DNA of 41,564 nucleotides from Candidatus Peribacterales bacterium (GCA_035289805.1 DATDWC010000079.1:1-41564); one strand, 5' to 3'. Positions 5,756 to 41,564 are shown, counted from the first letter of the stretch. Translations and numbers: made by a program. The notes: generated by a model not told the origin, from the letters alone.

Positions 5756-6868
5756 ATGGTACAATCCCCCTCCATGCCTATTGCAACTGATTCCCGAGCC
5801 CTTTCCTGGGCATGCCTGAACCTTCTCACAAAGAAGCGCTACGACTTCCTGATAGCGACATATGGTTCACTGGAAAATGCATGGAATGCTCTGGATCAGA
5901 ATCTCCTGCAAAAATTGGGGTGCCGCGAAGATACGATCTTAAAAGTACTCAACGAAAAAGAAGAGCTCAATCTCGATCAACATCAAACAATCCTGAAGAA
6001 ACAGAATATTCAATTCCTCACGATCGGAGATGAGGAATATCCAGAGGCACTCCGCGAGATTGCAGATCCTCCTGTCTTTCTCTTTGCCAAAGGCAATTTA
6101 GATCTCCTCCGGGAACCCTTGATCGCAATTGTTGGAACAAGGAACATGAGCGCCTATGGGAAGAGGGTAGTGGAAATGCTTGTCCCTCCATTTGTGCACG
6201 CAGGTTTTGTAACGGTGAGCGGTCTCGCGATCGGTATTGATGCGGCGGTTGCAAAGGAGACAATGACCGTGGGTGGCAAAACGATCGCAGTGCTTGGAGC
6301 GGGCTTAAGTGCGATCTACCCCAAAACAAATGCAAGACTCGCGGAGGAAATTGTTGAACATGGCGGCCTCCTCCTCACGGAGTATCCCCTCCATATTGCT
6401 CCGGATAAGTACACCTTTCCCGCACGGAACCGCATCATTGCAGGGATCTCGCTTGGTACAGTCGTGGCAGAAGCTGCCGCTCAGAGCGGATCACTCATTA
6501 CCGCAAGTCTGGCTCTCGAGTACGGGAAGGAAGTGTTCGCAGTCCCAGGACCGATCTTCGATCCCAATATGGAGGGCACACACCACTTGATTCAGAAGAG
6601 CGGTGCCAAACTCATCACTTCTGCAGAGGATGTACTCCTGGAACTTGGCGTTGTGATACCAGAGAAGAGTGCAAATTCCTCTTCCTATGAAGCACAAACC
6701 GCAGAGGAAGAGCTCCTCTGGAAGTGCCTCACCACAATGCCGCAGAGCGTGGATGAACTCACCGAAAAGTCAAAACTGAGCGTTGCCGCAATCAATGCCA
6801 CTCTCACACTCATGGAGCTTAAGGGTGGTGCAAAGAATATCGGCAGAGGGCAGTGGGTAAAAATTTGA
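5756..6868 (+). CDS. dprA: DNA processing protein DprA (Smf)
   Basis: 370 aa. Rossmann-like DprA core (IAIVGTRNMSAYGKRV ... SGLAIGIDAAVAKE ... GAGLSAIYP ... FPARNRIIAG ... SGSLITA) plus a C-terminal winged-helix-like tail. Confidence 0.9.
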   Translation: MVQSPSMPIATDSRALSWACLNLLTKKRYDFLIATYGSLENAWNALDQNLLQKLGCREDTILKVLNEKEELNLDQHQTILKKQNIQFLTIGDEEYPEALREIADPPVFLFAKGNLDLLREPLIAIVGTRNMSAYGKRVVEMLVPPFVHAGFVTVSGLAIGIDAAVAKETMTVGGKTIAVLGAGLSAIYPKTNARLAEEIVEHGGLLLTEYPLHIAPDKYTFPARNRIIAGISLGTVVAEAAAQSGSLITASLALEYGKEVFAVPGPIFDPNMEGTHHLIQKSGAKLITSAEDVLLELGVVIPEKSANSSSYEAQTAEEELLWKCLTTMPQSVDELTEKSKLSVAAINATLTLMELKGGAKNIGRGQWVKI

Positions 6869-8036: not shown

Positions 8037-9053
8037 CTACAAAAACCGCGCTTTATTAGCATTGTGATCATCGTTTGTTTCGGCATAGCGGATCACCCCG
8101 TCCTTCCCATGGAGGTAGTACCAGTAGGGGCTCTCCTTAGGGTGCAGAGCCGCCTGGATGCTCTGTAAGCCGGCATTTGCGATAGGGCCGGGGGGCAGTC
8201 CCACATGTTTTCTGGTGTTATAAGGCGAAGGATTTTCCAGATCTTCACGCGTGAGGGGCTCTGTAGACTTTAAGAGTGCATACCGGATAGTGGCATCTAC
8301 ATCGAGTCCCTGATTCGCATCGAAGCGCTTCCAGAGAATCCCGGAGACTATGGGGCGCTCCTCATCCGTCTTCGTCTCTCGCTCGATGAGCGAAGACATA
8401 ATCACGATCTCTTTAAGTGAGCGCTCTGATACTGCAAGATCTTCCGCTAACCCCTCGATGATGCGTGTGCGGAATGTCCCAAGCATCCGCTCGAGGAAAA
8501 GCTGAGGGACGAATTCGTTCGGGTTCACAAAGTACGTATCGGGGAAGAGGTATCCCTCTAGTCTTCGAGCTCGATCTGAGGGCGCATCGAGAAATCCTTC
8601 TCCATCATTAAGAAAATCAAACGAGGAAAAATCACACGTCGCAGCGCATGCAAGGAGCGCTCCCTGCTCTCCTAAGCCATTCTCGGCAAGGAGTGCATCG
8701 ATTTGATCGACTGTATACCCTTCCGGAATAGTGATCGTAACCTCCTGACCCTTCGCACTTGCGAGGATTTCTGCAATCTCCGCAAACGTTGCGTCTTCCG
8801 GAATCGAGAACGTTCCTGTTTTCACTCCTGTATCGAGTCCATTGATCTGGAGGTAGAGGCGGAAGGCAAATGCCGAAGGAACCAGACCATGCTGTTTAAG
8901 TGCCTGCGATATCTCCCGCACCGTCATGCCGCTTTCCACTTGTATCTCCGTTGGCCCCCCGAGGCCCTCCCCTCCTCCCATGACCTGGAGGAAGAAGATC
9001 GTTGCGCCAAACGAGAGGAGAAAGAGGAAGAAGAGTGCGCGGAGAAATTTCAT
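8037..9053 (-). CDS. mltG: Endolytic murein transglycosylase MltG (YceG family)
   Basis: 338 aa. N-terminal TM and the YceG-type C-terminal motif (PSPYNTRKHVGLPPGPIANAGLQSIQAALHP). Confidence 0.9.
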   Translation of the reverse strand: MKFLRALFFLFLLSFGATIFFLQVMGGGEGLGGPTEIQVESGMTVREISQALKQHGLVPSAFAFRLYLQINGLDTGVKTGTFSIPEDATFAEIAEILASAKGQEVTITIPEGYTVDQIDALLAENGLGEQGALLACAATCDFSSFDFLNDGEGFLDAPSDRARRLEGYLFPDTYFVNPNEFVPQLFLERMLGTFRTRIIEGLAEDLAVSERSLKEIVIMSSLIERETKTDEERPIVSGILWKRFDANQGLDVDATIRYALLKSTEPLTREDLENPSPYNTRKHVGLPPGPIANAGLQSIQAALHPKESPYWYYLHGKDGVIRYAETNDDHNANKARFL

Positions 9054-9082
9054 GCGGAAGGAGTATACCGCTTTCTTCGAGT

Positions 9083-9185
9083 GTTCTCTTCGAGCGAGGC
9101 GCTAACAGGCGCCGAGTCGAGAAGTTCTCAAAACAACACGCTTCTCGATTCGCCCCGCTTAAGGCGGGGCTCACTCGAAGAGAAC
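9083..9185 (-). other. Putative structured element (closing stem plus three hairpins) between ybaB and mltG
   Basis: Closing stem 9083-9094 (gttctcttcgag) pairs with 9174-9185 (ctcgaagagaac). Hairpins: ggcgc/gcgcc 9098-9113, tcgagaag/cttctcga 9117-9148, gccccgc/gcggggc 9152-9170. All pairings were read directly from the sequence. Confidence 0.35.
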
Positions 9186-15879: not shown

Positions 15880-17298
15880 ATGTCACAACCTCTCTACCGA
15901 ACTCCGAAAGGCACCTACGATATTCTTCCCGAACTCCAGCAATACCATACGTACATTAAGAAAGCGGTGCGTCACAGGGCACGCCAGGCAGGTTTTAAGC
16001 GGATCGATACGCCGATTTTCGAGAACAGGGAGGTCTTCGATCGAGGGGTGGGGCTCCACACCGATATTGTGGAGAAGGAGCTCTTCACGGTGGAACGTCG
16101 CGGAACCAGTGCGTCAGCCTCCGCTTCAGCCTCCGCTAAAGCTACGGCCGACACGAAAGCTTCGGCGGACAGGGATATCGAGAAGGACGCCTGGGCACTT
16201 CGGCCAGAGCCTACCGCCCCGATCTGCCGCGCGTACATCGAACACGGCATGAAGGAGCTCCCCCAACCGGTGCAGCTCTACGTGATTGGCTCGATGTTTC
16301 GGTACGATCGTCCACAGAAGGGGCGCTTCCGCGAATTCCATCAGTTTGGGTTTGAATCGATTGGTATTAGCGATCCCAGCATCGATGCTCAGCTCATCAA
16401 TGTCCTGAGTCACATTTTACAGGATCTACAGATCTTTGATCGACTCAAGCTCCAGATCAATAACATTGGTGATGCAGAGAGCCGCAAAGCATTCACCCAG
16501 GCTCTGGTTGATTTCTTCACAGGCAAGGAGCGCAACCTCTGCGAGGATTGTCAGAGTAGGCTCAAGACGAATCCGCTCCGGATCCTCGATTGCAAAAATG
16601 AGGACTGCAGAATCCTCCTCAAGATGGCCCCGAAGCTCGTGGATTACGTCGCAGAGGAGAGTAGGGAGTTCCACAAAACCCTCCTCGAATACCTCACCGA
16701 GTACCAAATCCCCTACGAAGAAAATCCAAACCTCGTGCGAGGCCTCGATTACTACAATCAAACCGTATTTGAGTTCTGGGATTCCTCCTCGGGGGCGCAG
16801 AACTCGGTTGCAGGGGGTGGGAGGTACGATGGGTTGATCGAGCTCCTGGGAGGACAAAAAACTCCTGCCGTTGGCTTTGGTTGTGGTATCGAACGCGTCA
16901 TCTACCACATGAAAGAAGCAGGTGTGTTAGCTCCTATGAAGGATCAGGTGGATGTGTTTGTTGCGCAGCTTGGACCCGAGGCTAAAAAGAAATGTCTGCG
17001 CTTGATCGAAGCCCTGCGGGAATCCGGCGTGCACACGATTGGAGCGCTTGGGGAAGCGAGTTTAAAGAGTCAGATGCGCCTCGCTGATAAATTCCAAGCG
17101 CGGTACACGCTGCTCCTTGGACAGATGGAGGTGAAGGAGAACAAAATTATTCTGCGCGATATGAAAGCTGGCAAACAGGAAACAATGTCCTTCGATCAAG
17201 CGATCCCCAAAGTGATTGAGCTCCTGGGAGGTAAGGATTCGCTCGATACGTACACGATCAAAGATAAACTGGGGGGATATAAGCAGGATGTCGAATAA
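15880..17298 (+). CDS. hisS: Histidine--tRNA ligase
   Basis: PKGTYDILP, LRPE(P)T, MFRYDRPQKGRFREFHQFG (motif 2), GGGRYDGL and GFGCGIERV (motif 3). Start set at the ATG at 15880 (MSQPLYRTPKGT). Contains an atypical insertion, described in the findings. Confidence 0.92.
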   Translation: MSQPLYRTPKGTYDILPELQQYHTYIKKAVRHRARQAGFKRIDTPIFENREVFDRGVGLHTDIVEKELFTVERRGTSASASASASAKATADTKASADRDIEKDAWALRPEPTAPICRAYIEHGMKELPQPVQLYVIGSMFRYDRPQKGRFREFHQFGFESIGISDPSIDAQLINVLSHILQDLQIFDRLKLQINNIGDAESRKAFTQALVDFFTGKERNLCEDCQSRLKTNPLRILDCKNEDCRILLKMAPKLVDYVAEESREFHKTLLEYLTEYQIPYEENPNLVRGLDYYNQTVFEFWDSSSGAQNSVAGGGRYDGLIELLGGQKTPAVGFGCGIERVIYHMKEAGVLAPMKDQVDVFVAQLGPEAKKKCLRLIEALRESGVHTIGALGEASLKSQMRLADKFQARYTLLLGQMEVKENKIILRDMKAGKQETMSFDQAIPKVIELLGGKDSLDTYTIKDKLGGYKQDVE

Positions 17299-17319: not shown

Positions 17320-18036
17320 ATGATTTCTATCGTCATCATTGCGTATAACGAGAAAAAAGAGATTGCCTCCTGCCTCATGGCGATGAGTAAGCAAACGTAC
17401 AGGGAACCCTTCGAAGTGATTGTTGTGGATAACGCTTCCACAGATCACACACCAGAAATTGCACAGAGCTTTGCGGAGAGACTTCCTCTCCGAGTGATCC
17501 GCGAGGAACACAAAGGCCGCGGCGCCGCTCGTGCACGAGGATTTGGTGAAGCCAAGGGAGAGATTATTCTCTCCACCGACGGAGATACTCTCTCTCCTCC
17601 GCACTGGATCGAAACAATGGTAAAGGCGCTCAAGGAAAATTTAGCAATTGTTGCCGTGACAGGCCCCTGCAAAATCCAGGATTGTGATCCTCTGACGAAT
17701 ATGCTCTTCAATATTATTCAACCTCTCTCGATGCATCTCTATCGCCTCTTCGTTGGTCACTACTGGCTCACAGGGAGTAACTTTGCGATCAGACGCGAGG
17801 CATACCAAACATCAGGAGGATTCGATCCTGCATCAGCATCTTCCGAAGATACAGAGCTCTCATTCAAGGTGAAAAAAATCGGAAAAATACGGTACGTCCC
17901 TTGCGCCGTGATCTCCTCCGGCCGCCGCTTTAAGGGCGGTTTTTTTGGCTTACTGAAGGGACTTTTTGCTTATCCGTGGACATGGATAAAGCGGTTTATA
18001 TTTCGGAAAGAGGTTGATTTATCGGATGTACGCTAA
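17320..18036 (+). CDS. Family 2 glycosyltransferase
   Basis: ISIVIIAYNE...VIVVDNASTDHT and TDGDT (DxD) motifs of GT-A/GT2 enzymes. Confidence 0.85.
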   Translation: MISIVIIAYNEKKEIASCLMAMSKQTYREPFEVIVVDNASTDHTPEIAQSFAERLPLRVIREEHKGRGAARARGFGEAKGEIILSTDGDTLSPPHWIETMVKALKENLAIVAVTGPCKIQDCDPLTNMLFNIIQPLSMHLYRLFVGHYWLTGSNFAIRREAYQTSGGFDPASASSEDTELSFKVKKIGKIRYVPCAVISSGRRFKGGFFGLLKGLFAYPWTWIKRFIFRKEVDLSDVR

Positions 18037-18040
18037 CAAT

Positions 18041-18138
18041 ACGTCATGCTGAGGATGTCCCGCCTCCTTTCTTGTGATACCAACACCTTGATACTTCATT
18101 TCCCAAGGTAACAGAGTGGGGCCTCCTCAGCGTGACGT
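18041..18138. repeat. 98 nt element bounded by inverted repeats ACGTCATGCTGAGG / CCTCAGCGTGACGT (MITE-like or palindromic repeat family)
   Basis: The termini at 18041-18054 and 18125-18138 are reverse complements with one mismatch. The same terminal sequence bounds the 37271-37429 element. Sits in the GT2-gyrB intergenic gap. Confidence 0.5.
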
Positions 18139-18143
18139 AAGAA

Positions 18144-20294
<2,151 letters not shown>

Positions 20295-36411: not shown

Positions 36412-37950
36412 TTAAAGGATGTACTCGAGCCCGCGCTCTGGCATGAGGACTTCGATGCCCCGGGCTGCTTTCGTCCGTGTCGCTATCGCGGCCATCCCCT
36501 GCTCTTCCCCATGCACAAAGAAAATCTTTTTGAGGGTCGGGATCGAGGCGATAAATGCATCGAGATCGCGCATGTCGGCATGTCCCGAATATGCATTGAT
36601 GTACACCATCTCCGCTCTCTTCTGGTACGTGCGATCAAAAATCCTCACTGAGCGAATATTCTTCTCTATCAAACGTCGACCGAGTGTGTGCTCTGCCATG
36701 TAGCCAACAGCAAGGAAAGTGGATCGTGGATCTTCGATCGAGTGTGCAAGGTGGTGACGAATGCGACCTCCTTCGCACATGCCGGAGCCTGCCATAATGA
36801 TCATAGGGCCAGGGACGTTATTCAGCGCTTTGCTTTCCTCCACGGATTCCGTGTAGCGGACAATGGAAAAATGGAATGGGCTATGGGCACGTGCAAGGAA
36901 CTGATCGTACATTTCGCGGTCGTAGCATTCGGGGTGCTTCATGAAGATATCTGTCACTCGTGATGCGAGAGGTGAATCGATGATGATCGGGATGGATGGA
37001 ATCTTCTTTTCATCCCACAGGAGATGGAGATCGTAGAGAATCTCCTGTGTCCGTTCGAGTGAGAATGCTGGAATGAGAATTTTTCCCCCTCGCCCCGCCG
37101 TGCGGTTTACCACTTCGGCCAGGGAGTTCTTTGCTGATTCGATATCCTCATGGAGGCGGTTCCCATAGGTGCTCTCGCAGATGAGAATATCCACAGGAGG
37201 CATAGATGCGGGATCACGGATAATCGGGAGCATGGCACGCCCCAAATCCCCACTGAATCCGATGCGAAATACGTCATGCTGAGCGGAATCCGGAGCATCC
37301 GACGAGGATGCGACGGATGGAGTCGAAGCACCTCGCATTGACTTCGAAGCTGATTTTTCTGATCCTTGCGACGCGCTTCGACTGCGTTCCGCTTCGCTCA
37401 GCGAAGCTTCACTTCGCTCAGCATGACGTGAAATTTCTAAAACAACCATTGCAGCACCGAGCACATGCCCTGCATCTAAAAACTGCACTCTCACACCCGG
37501 TACCGCTTCGAACCATTCACCGTAGTTCATCCCCTTAAAGAGCTCGCCACAATCGATCGCATCCTGCTGGGTGTAGAGCGGTCCATCGCAATCCACCATG
37601 GTGAGGGAACAGTGCTTGGTGAAGAATGCCTCATCCTTCTCCTGGAGGTATCCCCCATCCTGCAGCATCACCGGTGCAAGATCTTTGGTGGCATACGTAC
37701 AAAACACCGGGCCACGGTAGCCACGCTTCCAGAGCACAGGGATACGTCCCACATGATCCATGTGTGCATGGGAGAGGATCACCGCATCGATTTCGCCAGG
37801 GTTGAATGAGAGTGTTGCATTCTTTTCAACGGAGATCCTTCGGCTCCCCTGGAAGAGCCCGCAATCGAGCAGGATACGCTTCCCACCAATCTGAAGTTCG
37901 TGACAGGAGCCGGTGACTTCTCGTGCCGCGCCATGAGATATGAGTTTCAT
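36412..37950 (-). CDS. Metallo-beta-lactamase fold, beta-CASP family RNA-processing nuclease (RNase J/CPSF-like)
   Basis: MKLISHGAAREVTGSCHEL, LSHAHMDHVG (HxHxDH), AGHVLGAA, FSGDLG, CESTYG and a C-terminal SGHAD. Start set at the ATG at 37950. The ORF track extension to 38076 would overlap the divergent gene. Confidence 0.85.
   Translation of the reverse strand: MKLISHGAAREVTGSCHELQIGGKRILLDCGLFQGSRRISVEKNATLSFNPGEIDAVILSHAHMDHVGRIPVLWKRGYRGPVFCTYATKDLAPVMLQDGGYLQEKDEAFFTKHCSLTMVDCDGPLYTQQDAIDCGELFKGMNYGEWFEAVPGVRVQFLDAGHVLGAAMVVLEISRHAERSEASLSEAERSRSASQGSEKSASKSMRGASTPSVASSSDAPDSAQHDVFRIGFSGDLGRAMLPIIRDPASMPPVDILICESTYGNRLHEDIESAKNSLAEVVNRTAGRGGKILIPAFSLERTQEILYDLHLLWDEKKIPSIPIIIDSPLASRVTDIFMKHPECYDREMYDQFLARAHSPFHFSIVRYTESVEESKALNNVPGPMIIMAGSGMCEGGRIRHHLAHSIEDPRSTFLAVGYMAEHTLGRRLIEKNIRSVRIFDRTYQKRAEMVYINAYSGHADMRDLDAFIASIPTLKKIFFVHGEEQGMAAIATRTKAARGIEVLMPERGLEYIL
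37271..37429. repeat. 159 nt element bounded by perfect 15 nt inverted repeats, inserted in frame in the beta-CASP gene
   Basis: ACGTCATGCTGAGCG (37271-37285) and CGCTCAGCATGACGT (37415-37429) are exact reverse complements. An internal hairpin gcttcgc-tca-gcgaagc lies at 37391-37407. The length is 53 codons. The termini match the 18041-18138 element. Confidence 0.55.
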
Positions 37951-37975
37951 CATGTGAAAGTGTACACTGCAACTC

Positions 37976-39514
37976 ATGGTGGCGCGCGACAAGACCGGCG
38001 CTTCGAACGAAAGCGATTTCTGGAATTTACTCGCGCTCCTCTGCCTCGTTTTCGTTCTCCTCACCTCCTTCTTCACCTACTTCTATAGGTACCAGGAACC
38101 GCAAGCGCCTTTCTGGGACGAGAACTACTACATCACGGATGCGGAGAAAATTCTAAATGGAACGTTCCACATGCAGATTCATCCGCCACTTGGGAAACTC
38201 CTCATTGCCGCAGGTGAAGCACTCTTTGATAGTAATACGGATGATTCCACATTCCTCGATACAGAGCATGCGGGAGAATTCCCCGCAGAATTCTCCTTCC
38301 TTGGGTACCGCTTCTTCCCCGCTCTCCTTGGATGGCTCACGGCACCACTCCTCTTTTTGTGTCTCCTTCTCCTTGTGAGGAATCCGCTCCTCGCAACACT
38401 CCTCACATTTCCCTACCTCTTCGATAACGCACTCCTCGTCCATAGCCGGGGCGCAATGCTCGATTCCTCGCTCAACTTCTTCTTCGTTGCAGCGATCCTC
38501 TTCTTCATCCTGCTCACAAAGACTCCGCACAGGAAGAAAGCATTCCTCTGGCTCGCTGCACTCCTTGGTATCACGATCGGTCTTGCGATCACCACAAAAA
38601 TGAACGGCGCAGTGCTGCTCTTGCTGATTCCAACACTCTGCATTCGCTTCCGGCGGGAGCTCCATGATCTTTTTGCTCTACTCACTACACTGAGTGGAGG
38701 TTTTTTGATTGTCTTCGTGAGTGTCTGGTTCCTCTTCCTCTCTGGAATGGATACGATACAGACAGAGCTCCGGGATGAAGGATGGTTTAGTGCATCGGAG
38801 GAGTACAAAGAAATCATTCGGAAGGGGAAGCAATCTTCCCTCACTTCGTTCCCTGTGATGCTGCGCGATCACCTGCGCTATGCACCAGAGTACAACAGCG
38901 GCATCCCCAAGCTCGATCTCTGTAAGCCGGATGAAAACGGCAGCCCCATCTTCCTCTGGCCATTTGGCGTGACTGCCATTAACTACCGATGGGCATCTTC
39001 GGGCGAAAATACCTACCGCTACCTCTACCTCGTCGCAAATCCTGCAGCGTGGGCAGCAGGCCTCGCGGGAGTTCTCCTCTCTGCGGCGTACCTCCTCTCC
39101 CCTCTCTTTGGAAAAAAGCGAACAACGCGCGCAGAGCGTGATCTCGCGTTCTACGGAACAACCCTCCTTACAATCTACGTTGGCTACATGGGGGCATTCA
39201 TGTTGATGGATCGGGTGCACTTCCTCTATAGCTACTTCCCCGCGCTTCTCACGAGCTTCCTTTTGCTTGGCATTGTGTTCTCTGTAGCAACCTCCCTTGG
39301 ATCGGAGAAGCTGACAGAAGAGCGAAAAATCCTGATCGCGATGTTCATGGCCTGCCTCATCTTCCTCTGCTTCCAGATCTATCGCCCGCTCACCTACTAC
39401 GAGCCGATCACAGATGAAGGAGTCACAAATCGCGCAATCTTCCGCCTCTGGAATCTGCGGTGTGTGGATTGCGAAAAGCCGAGCCCCTTAGTACGGCATC
39501 AATGCGAGGTATGA
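37976..39514 (+). CDS. GT-C fold membrane glycosyltransferase, PMT (GT39)-like
   Basis: 512 aa polytopic protein. The first loop has FWDENYYITDAEK (DE motif) and HPPLGKLLIA, typical of protein O-mannosyltransferase-like enzymes. Confidence 0.8.
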   Translation: MVARDKTGASNESDFWNLLALLCLVFVLLTSFFTYFYRYQEPQAPFWDENYYITDAEKILNGTFHMQIHPPLGKLLIAAGEALFDSNTDDSTFLDTEHAGEFPAEFSFLGYRFFPALLGWLTAPLLFLCLLLLVRNPLLATLLTFPYLFDNALLVHSRGAMLDSSLNFFFVAAILFFILLTKTPHRKKAFLWLAALLGITIGLAITTKMNGAVLLLLIPTLCIRFRRELHDLFALLTTLSGGFLIVFVSVWFLFLSGMDTIQTELRDEGWFSASEEYKEIIRKGKQSSLTSFPVMLRDHLRYAPEYNSGIPKLDLCKPDENGSPIFLWPFGVTAINYRWASSGENTYRYLYLVANPAAWAAGLAGVLLSAAYLLSPLFGKKRTTRAERDLAFYGTTLLTIYVGYMGAFMLMDRVHFLYSYFPALLTSFLLLGIVFSVATSLGSEKLTEERKILIAMFMACLIFLCFQIYRPLTYYEPITDEGVTNRAIFRLWNLRCVDCEKPSPLVRHQCEV

Positions 39515-40811: not shown

Positions 40812-40929
40812 ATCTTGGCGGCGACCTACTCTGGCGTGGCGAATGCCACACTACCATCGGCGCGCCCGGGCTTAACTGCCGTGTTCGGAATGGGAACGGG
40901 TGTACCCCCGGGGCTAGAACCACCAAGAG
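40812..40929 (-). rRNA. rrf: 5S ribosomal RNA
   Basis: The reverse complement reads ...CTTGGTGGTTCTAGCCCCGGGGGTACACCCGTTCCCATTCCGAACACGGCAGTTAAGCCCGGGCGCGCCGATGGTAGTGTGG...CCAGAGTAGGTCGCCGCCAAG. Helix I pairs 40920-40928 with 40813-40821. A flanking GCCCT/AGGGC stem and a T7 run follow on the minus strand. Confidence 0.9.
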
Positions 40930-40956: not shown

Positions 40957-41019
40957 GAAGTAAGGAGGTAAGGGAGGAAGGAAGTACTAGTACTTCCTTA
41001 CTTCAATACCTCCTTACTT
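40957..41019 (-). repeat. Long interrupted palindrome or hairpin in the 23S-5S spacer
   Basis: Perfect 22 nt palindrome 40978-40999 (AAGGAAGTACTAGTACTTCCTT). It is flanked by a 13 bp outer stem, 40958-40970 (AAGTAAGGAGGTA) pairing with 41007-41019 (TACCTCCTTACTT). Confidence 0.5.
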
Positions 41020-41165
41020 ATAACCATGTCCACATACTGCTTGCCAAGCGATCCGCCTTTCGACGGACCGCAGGCACATGAACAGCGATTTCCGTGCATA
41101 CCCCACTACGCTCCTTACGGAGCTTCGTGAGGCAAGAGAGAAATGTTCTTGCTTCATCAATAAAG

Positions 41166-41564
<399 letters not shown>

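Follow-up and report, generated by a model that had tools for sequence, protein, structure and literature searches.

The stretch of DNA analysed here (the window, 41,564 nucleotides of a Candidatus Peribacterales bacterium, GCA_035289805.1 DATDWC010000079.1:1-41564) contains a gene for an RNA nuclease of the beta-CASP group, within which lies a 159-nt palindromic element inserted in frame. The gene and the parts of the element are listed below, with arms and hairpins written as they read on the sense strand.

36412..37950, minus strand: beta-CASP metallo-beta-lactamase-fold RNA nuclease, TTHA0252-like, with Pfam matches to Beta-Casp, RMMBL and Lactamase_B
37271..37429, minus strand: palindromic repeat element of 159 nt, lying in frame within the nuclease gene, residues ~217-268 of the 554-aa open reading frame (ORF) and ~175-226 of the 512-aa protein
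37415..37429, minus strand: 5' terminal arm ACGTCATGCTGAGCG, read as RHAE(R), invariant in 17 Peribacterales copies
37391..37407, minus strand: side hairpin A, GCTTCGC-TGA-GCGAAGC, a module that varies between copies and is swapped wholesale in orthologs with its pairing retained
37321..37383, minus strand: central hairpin with conserved arms AGTCGAAGCGCGTCGC... and ...GCGAGGTGCTTCGACT, encoding ERSRSASQG..., in which 37321-37342 pairs with 37362-37383
37288..37318, minus strand: side hairpin C, ATCCGTCGCATCC...GGATGCTCCGGAT, in which 37288-37300 pairs with 37306-37318, variable and with compensatory changes across copies
37271..37285, minus strand: 3' terminal arm CGCTCAGCATGACGT, read as (S)AQHD(V)

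The host protein matched the Thermus thermophilus RNase TTHA0252 at 3e-87, and its nearest proteins are labelled Candidatus Peregrinibacteria or Peribacterales. The ORF as listed spans 36412..38076 on the minus strand with a GTG start at 38076; all orthologs begin with MKLISHG, which corresponds to the ATG at 37950, and this is probably the true start. The 42-codon 5' extension (37950-38076), which overlaps a divergent ORF for a PMT-family glycosyltransferase (37976..39514), is probably untranslated.

The original prediction, made from the sequence, had described a 159-nt segment bounded by perfect 15-nt inverted repeats, and this description was confirmed: ACGTCATGCTGAGCG at 37271-37285 is the exact reverse complement of 37415-37429, and the span is exactly 159 nt. 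The hairpin gcttcgc-tca-gcgaagc reported at 37391-37407 was present, and the encoded peptide, (S)RHAERSE...SAQHD(V), lies as described between the GHVLGAA (motif 3) and FSGDLG (motif 4) sequences of the nuclease. The element begins at the third base of codon 216 and ends at the second base of codon 269. The terminus contains TGA in one of its three frames, and only two of the six frames of the window copy are open. In 100 dinucleotide-preserving shuffles of the window, no match to the terminus-pair pattern was obtained. The predicted fold of the sense (minus) strand is a 15-bp closing stem enclosing three hairpins, with a minimum free energy (MFE) of -91.7 kcal/mol (z = -8.5 versus shuffles). 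Rfam searches of the whole window at gathering scores, and of the element at E <= 10, returned only rRNA and chance miRNA matches and no intron or ribozyme.

The loop that holds the insert is six residues long in TTHA0252 versus ~58 in the host protein. The catalytic motifs expected of a beta-CASP nuclease (1-4 and A-C) are intact, and all residues invariant in 41 orthologs, HxHxDH, H162 and D235 among them, are kept in the host protein; because of this the host gene looks functional. An AlphaFold2 model built from a 41-sequence alignment had a mean predicted local distance difference test (pLDDT) score of 81 and a predicted template modelling score of 0.81, with values below 50 for residues 187-224; confident strands at 167-174 and 227-232 flank the insert, and a weak helix was predicted at 175-191. 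The insert most likely leaves the catalytic fold intact and forms a disordered loop of ~53 residues, and the low-confidence segment between two confident beta-strands fits the earlier suggestion of a tolerated surface loop.

Alignment with homologs confirmed the boundaries of the insert. An 8-residue loop, typically TENGKxxR, was found at this position in 53 of 81 parsed orthologs, and ~25 of the 81 had 13-65 residues of mutually unrelated sequence exactly at the insert position. No insert was present among the listed matches to distant homologs (distant Peregrinibacteria and other phyla). The DNA of twelve orthologs was obtained, starting from individual proteins. Four sequences (the window and loci L085, L081 and L082) contain the same element at the same site, with the termini and the central stem (AGTCGAAGCRCGTCGC...) in common and with side hairpins exchanged wholesale but still paired (window TTCGC-TGA-GCGAA versus L082 CCCCC-AGAG-CGGGG). 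Other orthologs have other palindromes in the loop, namely ACGTCTTGCTGAGGAG...CTCCTCAGGATGACGT plus a second block in L084, GTGTCATCCCGAGCGGAG...CTCCGCTCAGGGTGACAC in L086, a 17-nt inverted repeat in L208 and a 22-nt inverted repeat in L210, with weaker palindromes in L087 and L209. Loops of equivalent length but free of inverted repeats in unrelated lineages, named in the original prediction as a counter-argument, were not the pattern found: distant homologs have no insert, and the other inserts of Peregrinibacteria orthologs are mostly palindromic. The sites are empty in the close relatives L206 and L207. Neither a clean excision nor the canonical TENGKxxR loop is seen at the empty sites (DQQSLR, DATPRLFR).

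Further observations were made at this loop. At L082 6380-6401, the left terminus of the copy in the beta-CASP ortholog P0004 is preceded by a 9-nt tandem duplicate (TACGTCATG TACGTCATGCTGAG), read as LRHV-RHAE, which hints at slippage or repair at the junction. The loop inserts of P0024, P0087, P0076 and P0080 (KFQIPNSKFQTN..., ...SLRSGSGSG..., ...SASSGQAG...) look, from their protein sequence only, like translated simple or hairpin repeats of other families. An assembly artefact was rejected as the source of the insertion because the same insertion recurs in independent assemblies (ENA, JGI, Logan and NCBI).

A set of 185,579 species-representative genomes was scanned for the two termini 101-161 nt apart. 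More than 118 stretches were found, most of them in Hymenobacter and other Cytophagales, with a few in an Armatimonadota metagenome-assembled genome (MAG), a Phycisphaerae MAG and a MAG labelled Janthinobacterium, and at least 11 in one Peribacterales genome, SMAG_U8109 (DATDWL01). The latter encodes the ortholog P0004 and has the element in its beta-CASP gene (L214). The central-stem pattern occurred ~17 times in SMAG_U8109 and elsewhere only twice, both times in Hymenobacter, and termini flanked by T...A were found only in SMAG_U8109. The same central-stem pattern identified 62 stretches in JGI and NCBI metagenomes, and related genomes and metagenomes together gave 54 distinct sites in the Peribacterales clade. 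Many further copies are therefore present in related genomes, in other genes as well as between genes, beyond the two elements of the window. Copies are 135-188 nt long with MFE values of -65 to -114 kcal/mol. In an alignment of 17 Peribacterales copies, the 15-bp terminal stem and the ~15-bp central stem were invariant, and the side hairpins were variable, with base pairs changed on both sides.

Near-identical arms are abundant in Hymenobacter (Bacteroidota), where they are intergenic. The window arm GCTTCGACTGCGTTCCGCTTCGCTCAGC is identical to a Cytophagales copy at 27 of 28 positions, and the 18-nt terminus at 18 of 18. Among Hymenobacter and relatives, the palindrome reaches out to AGA|ACGTC...GACGT|TCT and is often bordered by an A-run at one end and by a T-run at the opposite end. 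The lengths of the Hymenobacter-type copies show no preference for multiples of three (length mod 3 = 35/51/35). An open frame spanning the copy, with at least 50 codons on each side, was found for 4 of 121 copies classed as non-Peribacterales; three of these four (L184, L198 and L201) are SMAG_U8109 loci, leaving one coding copy among ~117 non-Peribacterales ones. Hymenobacter copies (L089, L094 and L162, for example L162 5120-5284) match the Rfam family RF02901 at 45-81 bits (maximum 80.7, E ~1e-17), with a gathering score of 97, and this small RNA (sRNA) family may be a transcribed copy of such a repeat.

Two side observations concern these relatives. The assembly JBPBPU01, labelled Janthinobacterium lividum, contains Hymenobacter-type copies at L092, L111, L115, L134, L135, L142, L152, L156, L157, L192 and L203, and so many copies of this type suggest that the bin is mislabelled or contaminated and that the host is not a betaproteobacterium. 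A right-arm motif, CTCCTCAGCRTGACGT(A), 17 nt identical to the right end of a 98-nt element elsewhere in the window (described below), occurs at L082 1599-1614 and 1737-1753 and at L084 383-398. Its location in L084 is a peripheral hairpin within a 23S rRNA group I intron (Rfam Intron_gpI, L084 162-440); in L082 it lies in similar sequence within the 23S match, where no intron match was reported. L084 and L208 have LAGLIDADG_2 ORFs in the 23S region.

Fifteen of the 54 Peribacterales site variants lie within long open frames, and all 15 are multiples of three in length (135-180 nt) and are read in the frame RHAE...AQHD(V); the remaining 39 sites have lengths mod 3 of 17/12/10. At least seven host genes are involved, encoding the beta-CASP nuclease, a PriA-like DEAD/Helicase_C helicase, PGM/PMM, a helicase-nuclease of UvrD/PD-(D/E)XK (UvrD/AddA) type, an NTP_transferase, a DinB/IMS polymerase IV and one unnamed product (L238). 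Pfam domain matches straddle the inserts, the one in PGM/PMM lying between domains I and II, and the insert peptide of the NTP-transferase, SRHAERSEASQSEAERSRSTSQGSEESAPNSMRDAST..., is nearly identical to that of the window. Orthologous coding copies at the same site in different species differ in length by multiples of three (141/165, 156/150, 162/144, 156/153 and 159/180/150/156 nt). Non-coding copies are found mostly 1-20 nt past stop codons, in 16 convergent, 15 tandem and 3 divergent gaps by rough ORF calls.

The arms of the element are more conserved than the genes that hold them. In eight orthologous pairs, the flanking 300 nt of coding DNA were 62-87% identical (71% pooled), the terminal arms were identical at 27-30 of 30 positions and the central arms at 26-29 of 29 (~96% for both arms together), and the rest of the element was 49-80% identical. 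Four of the eight pairs came from metagenomes and are biased because they were discovered through the conserved core; in the four beta-CASP pairs, found by protein similarity alone, the flanks were 63-71% identical, the arms matched at 27-29 of 30 positions and the stems were ~93-95% identical. We infer that the stems are held constant at the nucleic-acid level, through copying or homogenising of the element or through a role in RNA or DNA.

The original prediction also noted the same termini on an intergenic element of the window:

18041..18138, no strand assigned: 98-nt element, termini shared with the 159-nt element, interior unrelated, fold z = -7.6

The shared termini were found to extend over 13-16 nt with one mismatch, and the likeness ends there. 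The 98-nt element occupies the gap between the convergent stop codons of a GT2 glycosyltransferase gene (17320..18036, plus strand) and gyrB (18144..20291, minus strand), 4-5 nt from each stop. It was not matched in a search of the window with the profile of the 159-nt family. A scan for intrinsic terminators did not call the 98-nt element, which has no T-run. The sole plus-strand match of that scan lies inside the GT2 coding region, where a terminator-like hairpin with a T-run, GGCCGCCGCTTTAAGGGCGGTTTTTTTGG, was seen at 17920-17950 in the 3' part of the ORF (peptide ...SSGRRFKGGFFG...), ~90 nt upstream of the 98-nt element. Other inverted-repeat pairs of the window, at 9083-9185 (16 nt, 94%), 6379-6584 (20 nt, 85%), 8801-9151 (22 nt, 77%) and 16999-17202 (13 nt, 100%), are unrelated to the ACGTCATGCTGAG family. 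A palindrome with 31-nt arms, 87% complementary and with zero spacer, at 40958-41019 between the 5S rRNA (40813-40927) and the 3' end of the 23S rRNA (41163-41564), may be a processing stem of the rRNA spacer.

Taken together, these results make it probable that the 159-nt segment is a non-autonomous palindromic repeat of a lineage-restricted family, inserted in frame and translated as a disordered loop. A copy, either newly inserted or inherited, would have become fixed in the codons of a beta-hairpin loop between motif 3 (GHVLGAA) and motif 4 (FSGDLG); its architecture is that of the family, with a stem of 15 bp at the termini, a central stem that is conserved and two side hairpins that vary. 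The element would be retained in the mRNA and read in the one hydrophilic, stop-free frame (RHAERSE...ERSRS.SQG...RGAST...AQHDV). Selection would then act as a filter, such that copies with a length of 3n, in the RHAE frame and in permissive loops survive in a gene-dense genome of ~1 Mb; the insert would have survived because it is 3n long, lies in the one benign frame and sits at a permissive site. The earlier proposal that a miniature inverted-repeat or palindromic element had landed in the gene is therefore upheld as regards a dispersed palindromic repeat, but not as regards a MITE (miniature inverted-repeat transposable element) in the strict sense, since no target-site duplication was found.

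Several results weigh against this interpretation. In the flanks of ~20 Peribacterales copies no consistent direct repeat was seen that could be a target-site duplication, and no consistent target motif was seen at the copies examined. (The sequence ATTTC, present on both sides of the window copy, was considered as a duplication and rejected, as it is absent in orthologous and other copies; a TA duplication was also inconsistent.) No transposase or autonomous partner was found, the ORFs viewed being only those between neighbouring Hymenobacter copies, which are unannotated and appear to be ordinary genes by size and position. The window has one copy of the full family and one element that shares only the termini, and a search with nhmmer and the family profile gave no additional diverged copies there. 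In a neighbour-joining tree calculated with the loop removed, the element is patchy within one clade of close orthologs, which could reflect either one gain followed by several losses or replacements, or a loop that was hit repeatedly. Translation and tolerance of the insert are deduced from sequence and a structure model, and compatibility of an insertion point with the fold was modelled for the beta-CASP protein alone, where a low-pLDDT insert falls at a loop of 6-8 residues in homologs. In addition, copies were counted as coding if an open frame spans them, a definition that already presupposes an insert in frame and free of stops; this concern is limited because the lengths of orthologous copies differ by 3n and no non-coding copy was seen splitting a gene.

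There is a low but appreciable chance that the element is instead mainly a functional nucleic-acid structure, a sequence-specific hairpin module at gene 3' ends (a bidirectional terminator, an mRNA 3'-end stabiliser, or a site for RNase III or another protein) rather than selfish DNA. Inside coding regions such a module would influence how the mRNA of the host gene decays or is translated, and to that extent this explanation overlaps with a translated repeat. The position of non-coding copies, mostly just after stops and in the window 4-5 nt from two convergent stops, is consistent with a function at 3' ends, but these are also the places where selfish insertions are least harmful. Hymenobacter copies are intergenic, often with an A-run and a T-run extending the palindrome, and resemble the sRNA family RF02901, but the intergenic copy of the window has no T-run and was not called by the terminator scan. 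The arms are ~96% identical between orthologous copies, against ~71% for the flanking coding sequence, and are common to several phyla, but the conservation of the stems in the metagenome pairs is partly due to ascertainment, and the host genes of the coding copies show no obvious common regulatory logic.

A different origin, in which the palindrome was built de novo at a hypervariable loop by template switching or hairpin-primed synthesis with no mobile element involved, is given only a slim chance. Unrelated inserts of 13-65 residues at one loop in ~25 of 81 parsed orthologs, the palindromic nature of most inserts examined as DNA, the wholesale swapping of side hairpins with pairing kept, and the 9-nt tandem duplication of the terminus in L082 would all fit such a process. 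The same termini and central stem are found in the same order in at least six other genes and at many intergenic sites, and because dispersed copies share these parts, local generation is excluded for the window element; it may still explain why side hairpins turn over, as well as some inserts of other orthologs (L087 and L209). Next to no probability is assigned to removal of the segment before the mature protein is formed, whether by intron-like RNA excision via the closing stem or as a mini-intein, a caveat of the original prediction that can largely be dismissed. The closing stem would bring both junctions together, and the right-arm motif is also found in peripheral hairpins of group I introns in the 23S rRNA of relatives. 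However, all 15 intragenic variants are 3n long and open in a single common frame, and the lengths of orthologous copies differ by 3n, which makes excision very unlikely, because excision before translation would need neither a 3n length nor an open frame; nor was there an Rfam intron or ribozyme match, even at E <= 10. Inteins have a Hint fold of ~130 or more residues, with Cys, Ser or Thr at position +1 of both junctions and a terminal His-Asn. The 53 residues of the insert are far below this size, Pfam found no Hint or intein domain, and the junction ...HDV|F has no His-Asn or Cys/Ser/Thr signature.

A more far-reaching reading, which we regard as doubtful and put forward tentatively, is that the arms and the central stem form a maintained, sequence-specific nucleic-acid module that is exchanged between phyla (Bacteroidota with Hymenobacter, a narrow Peribacterales clade, Armatimonadota and Phycisphaerae) and recognised by conserved trans-acting machinery. 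Such machinery would re-copy or homogenise the element at the same sites, or use it as an RNA signal even within coding sequence. Re-copying or homogenising would explain both why the stems are near-invariant within loops that evolve fast and why one beta-CASP loop is occupied repeatedly. If true, it would amount to a hairpin system of a new kind, mobile or regulatory, that inscribes itself in protein sequences.

Returning to a translated, lineage-restricted repeat, its closest parallel is in the Rickettsia palindromic elements (RPEs), hairpin-forming repeats that are found in frame within genes and add a peptide where this is judged compatible with fold and function (Ogata et al. 2000 and 2002, summarised in PMC10969869 and PMC1166351); of the 728 RPEs of R. 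felis, 85 are located in ORFs and 3 in genes for RNA (PMC1166351). RPEs and the present family have in common hairpin repeats of ~100-150 bp that number tens to hundreds per small genome, no known transposase, and locations in non-coding and coding sites, with intragenic copies in frame, and also in RNA genes, the parallel here being CTCCTCAGCRTGACGT in peripheral hairpins of group I introns in the 23S rRNA of relatives. Unlike RPEs, the family in Peregrinibacteria, which belong to the candidate phyla radiation (CPR), combines a closing stem and a conserved central stem with two freely varying side hairpins, its stems hardly vary between species and recur in intergenic elements of Bacteroidota, and about a quarter to a third of its copies are intragenic. 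Homology to RPE-1 to RPE-10 is unlikely because phylum and consensus differ, and the family would be an analogue of RPEs and not a member.

Some bacterial MITEs (Correia/CREE, ERIC, Nezha, BOX/RUP/SPRITE) form in-frame fusions, and SPRITE and Correia act as terminators (PMC10969869). The present family resembles MITEs in being short and non-autonomous, with terminal inverted repeats (here perfect over 15 nt) and many copies, but differs in that no target-site duplication was observed and in that the entire element forms a nested palindrome, and not a unique sequence enclosed by terminal repeats. No cognate insertion sequence with the same termini was found, no systematic search having been made, and the status of a strict MITE is not supported because neither a target-site duplication nor a partner insertion sequence was found. 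Repetitive extragenic palindromes and bacterial interspersed mosaic elements (REP/BIME) are extragenic palindromes of 20-40 nt with a conserved GTAG-type head, mobilised by REP-associated tyrosine transposases (RAYTs) of IS200/IS605-like type. They share with the present family the palindromic structure, the position at gene 3' ends, the lack of target-site duplication and sequence conservation within a genome, but the present family is 98-188 nt long, has no GTAG head and has translated intragenic copies. No RAYT gene turned up, though none was systematically searched for. The 5' hairpin consensus of RF02901 (AaHKsRNA41, Aggregatibacter sRNA 41), ...GCUGAgCUUGcCGAAGCAUcu..., is nearly the sequence of the relatives in Hymenobacter, but all Hymenobacter matches are below the gathering score of 97 and the window element has no match at E <= 10. 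Full-text literature searches found neither a report on repeats of this kind from CPR bacteria or Hymenobacter nor a paper naming RF02901. What appears to be new is the occurrence of protein-coding palindromic repeats in a second, unrelated lineage with reduced genomes, together with their nested architecture, conserved stems and intergenic relatives in another phylum.

In conclusion, in the literature consulted protein-coding palindromic repeats are known chiefly from Rickettsia, apart from other bacterial MITEs that are occasionally inserted in frame, and the present family extends Rickettsia-like behaviour to the candidate phyla radiation, while relatives of the element in Bacteroidota occur exclusively between genes. 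These findings suggest that hairpin repeats, when they spread in small, gene-dense genomes, generally come to colonise surface loops in frame, and low-complexity inserts of CPR proteins that are so far unexplained may have one of their sources in repeats of this type. The inserts distort gene calls, alignments and structure predictions, and the peptides they encode (RHAERSE..., ...AQHDV) can be misread as features of the protein. The conserved stems and the identity across phyla provide a handle for finding whatever copies these elements.

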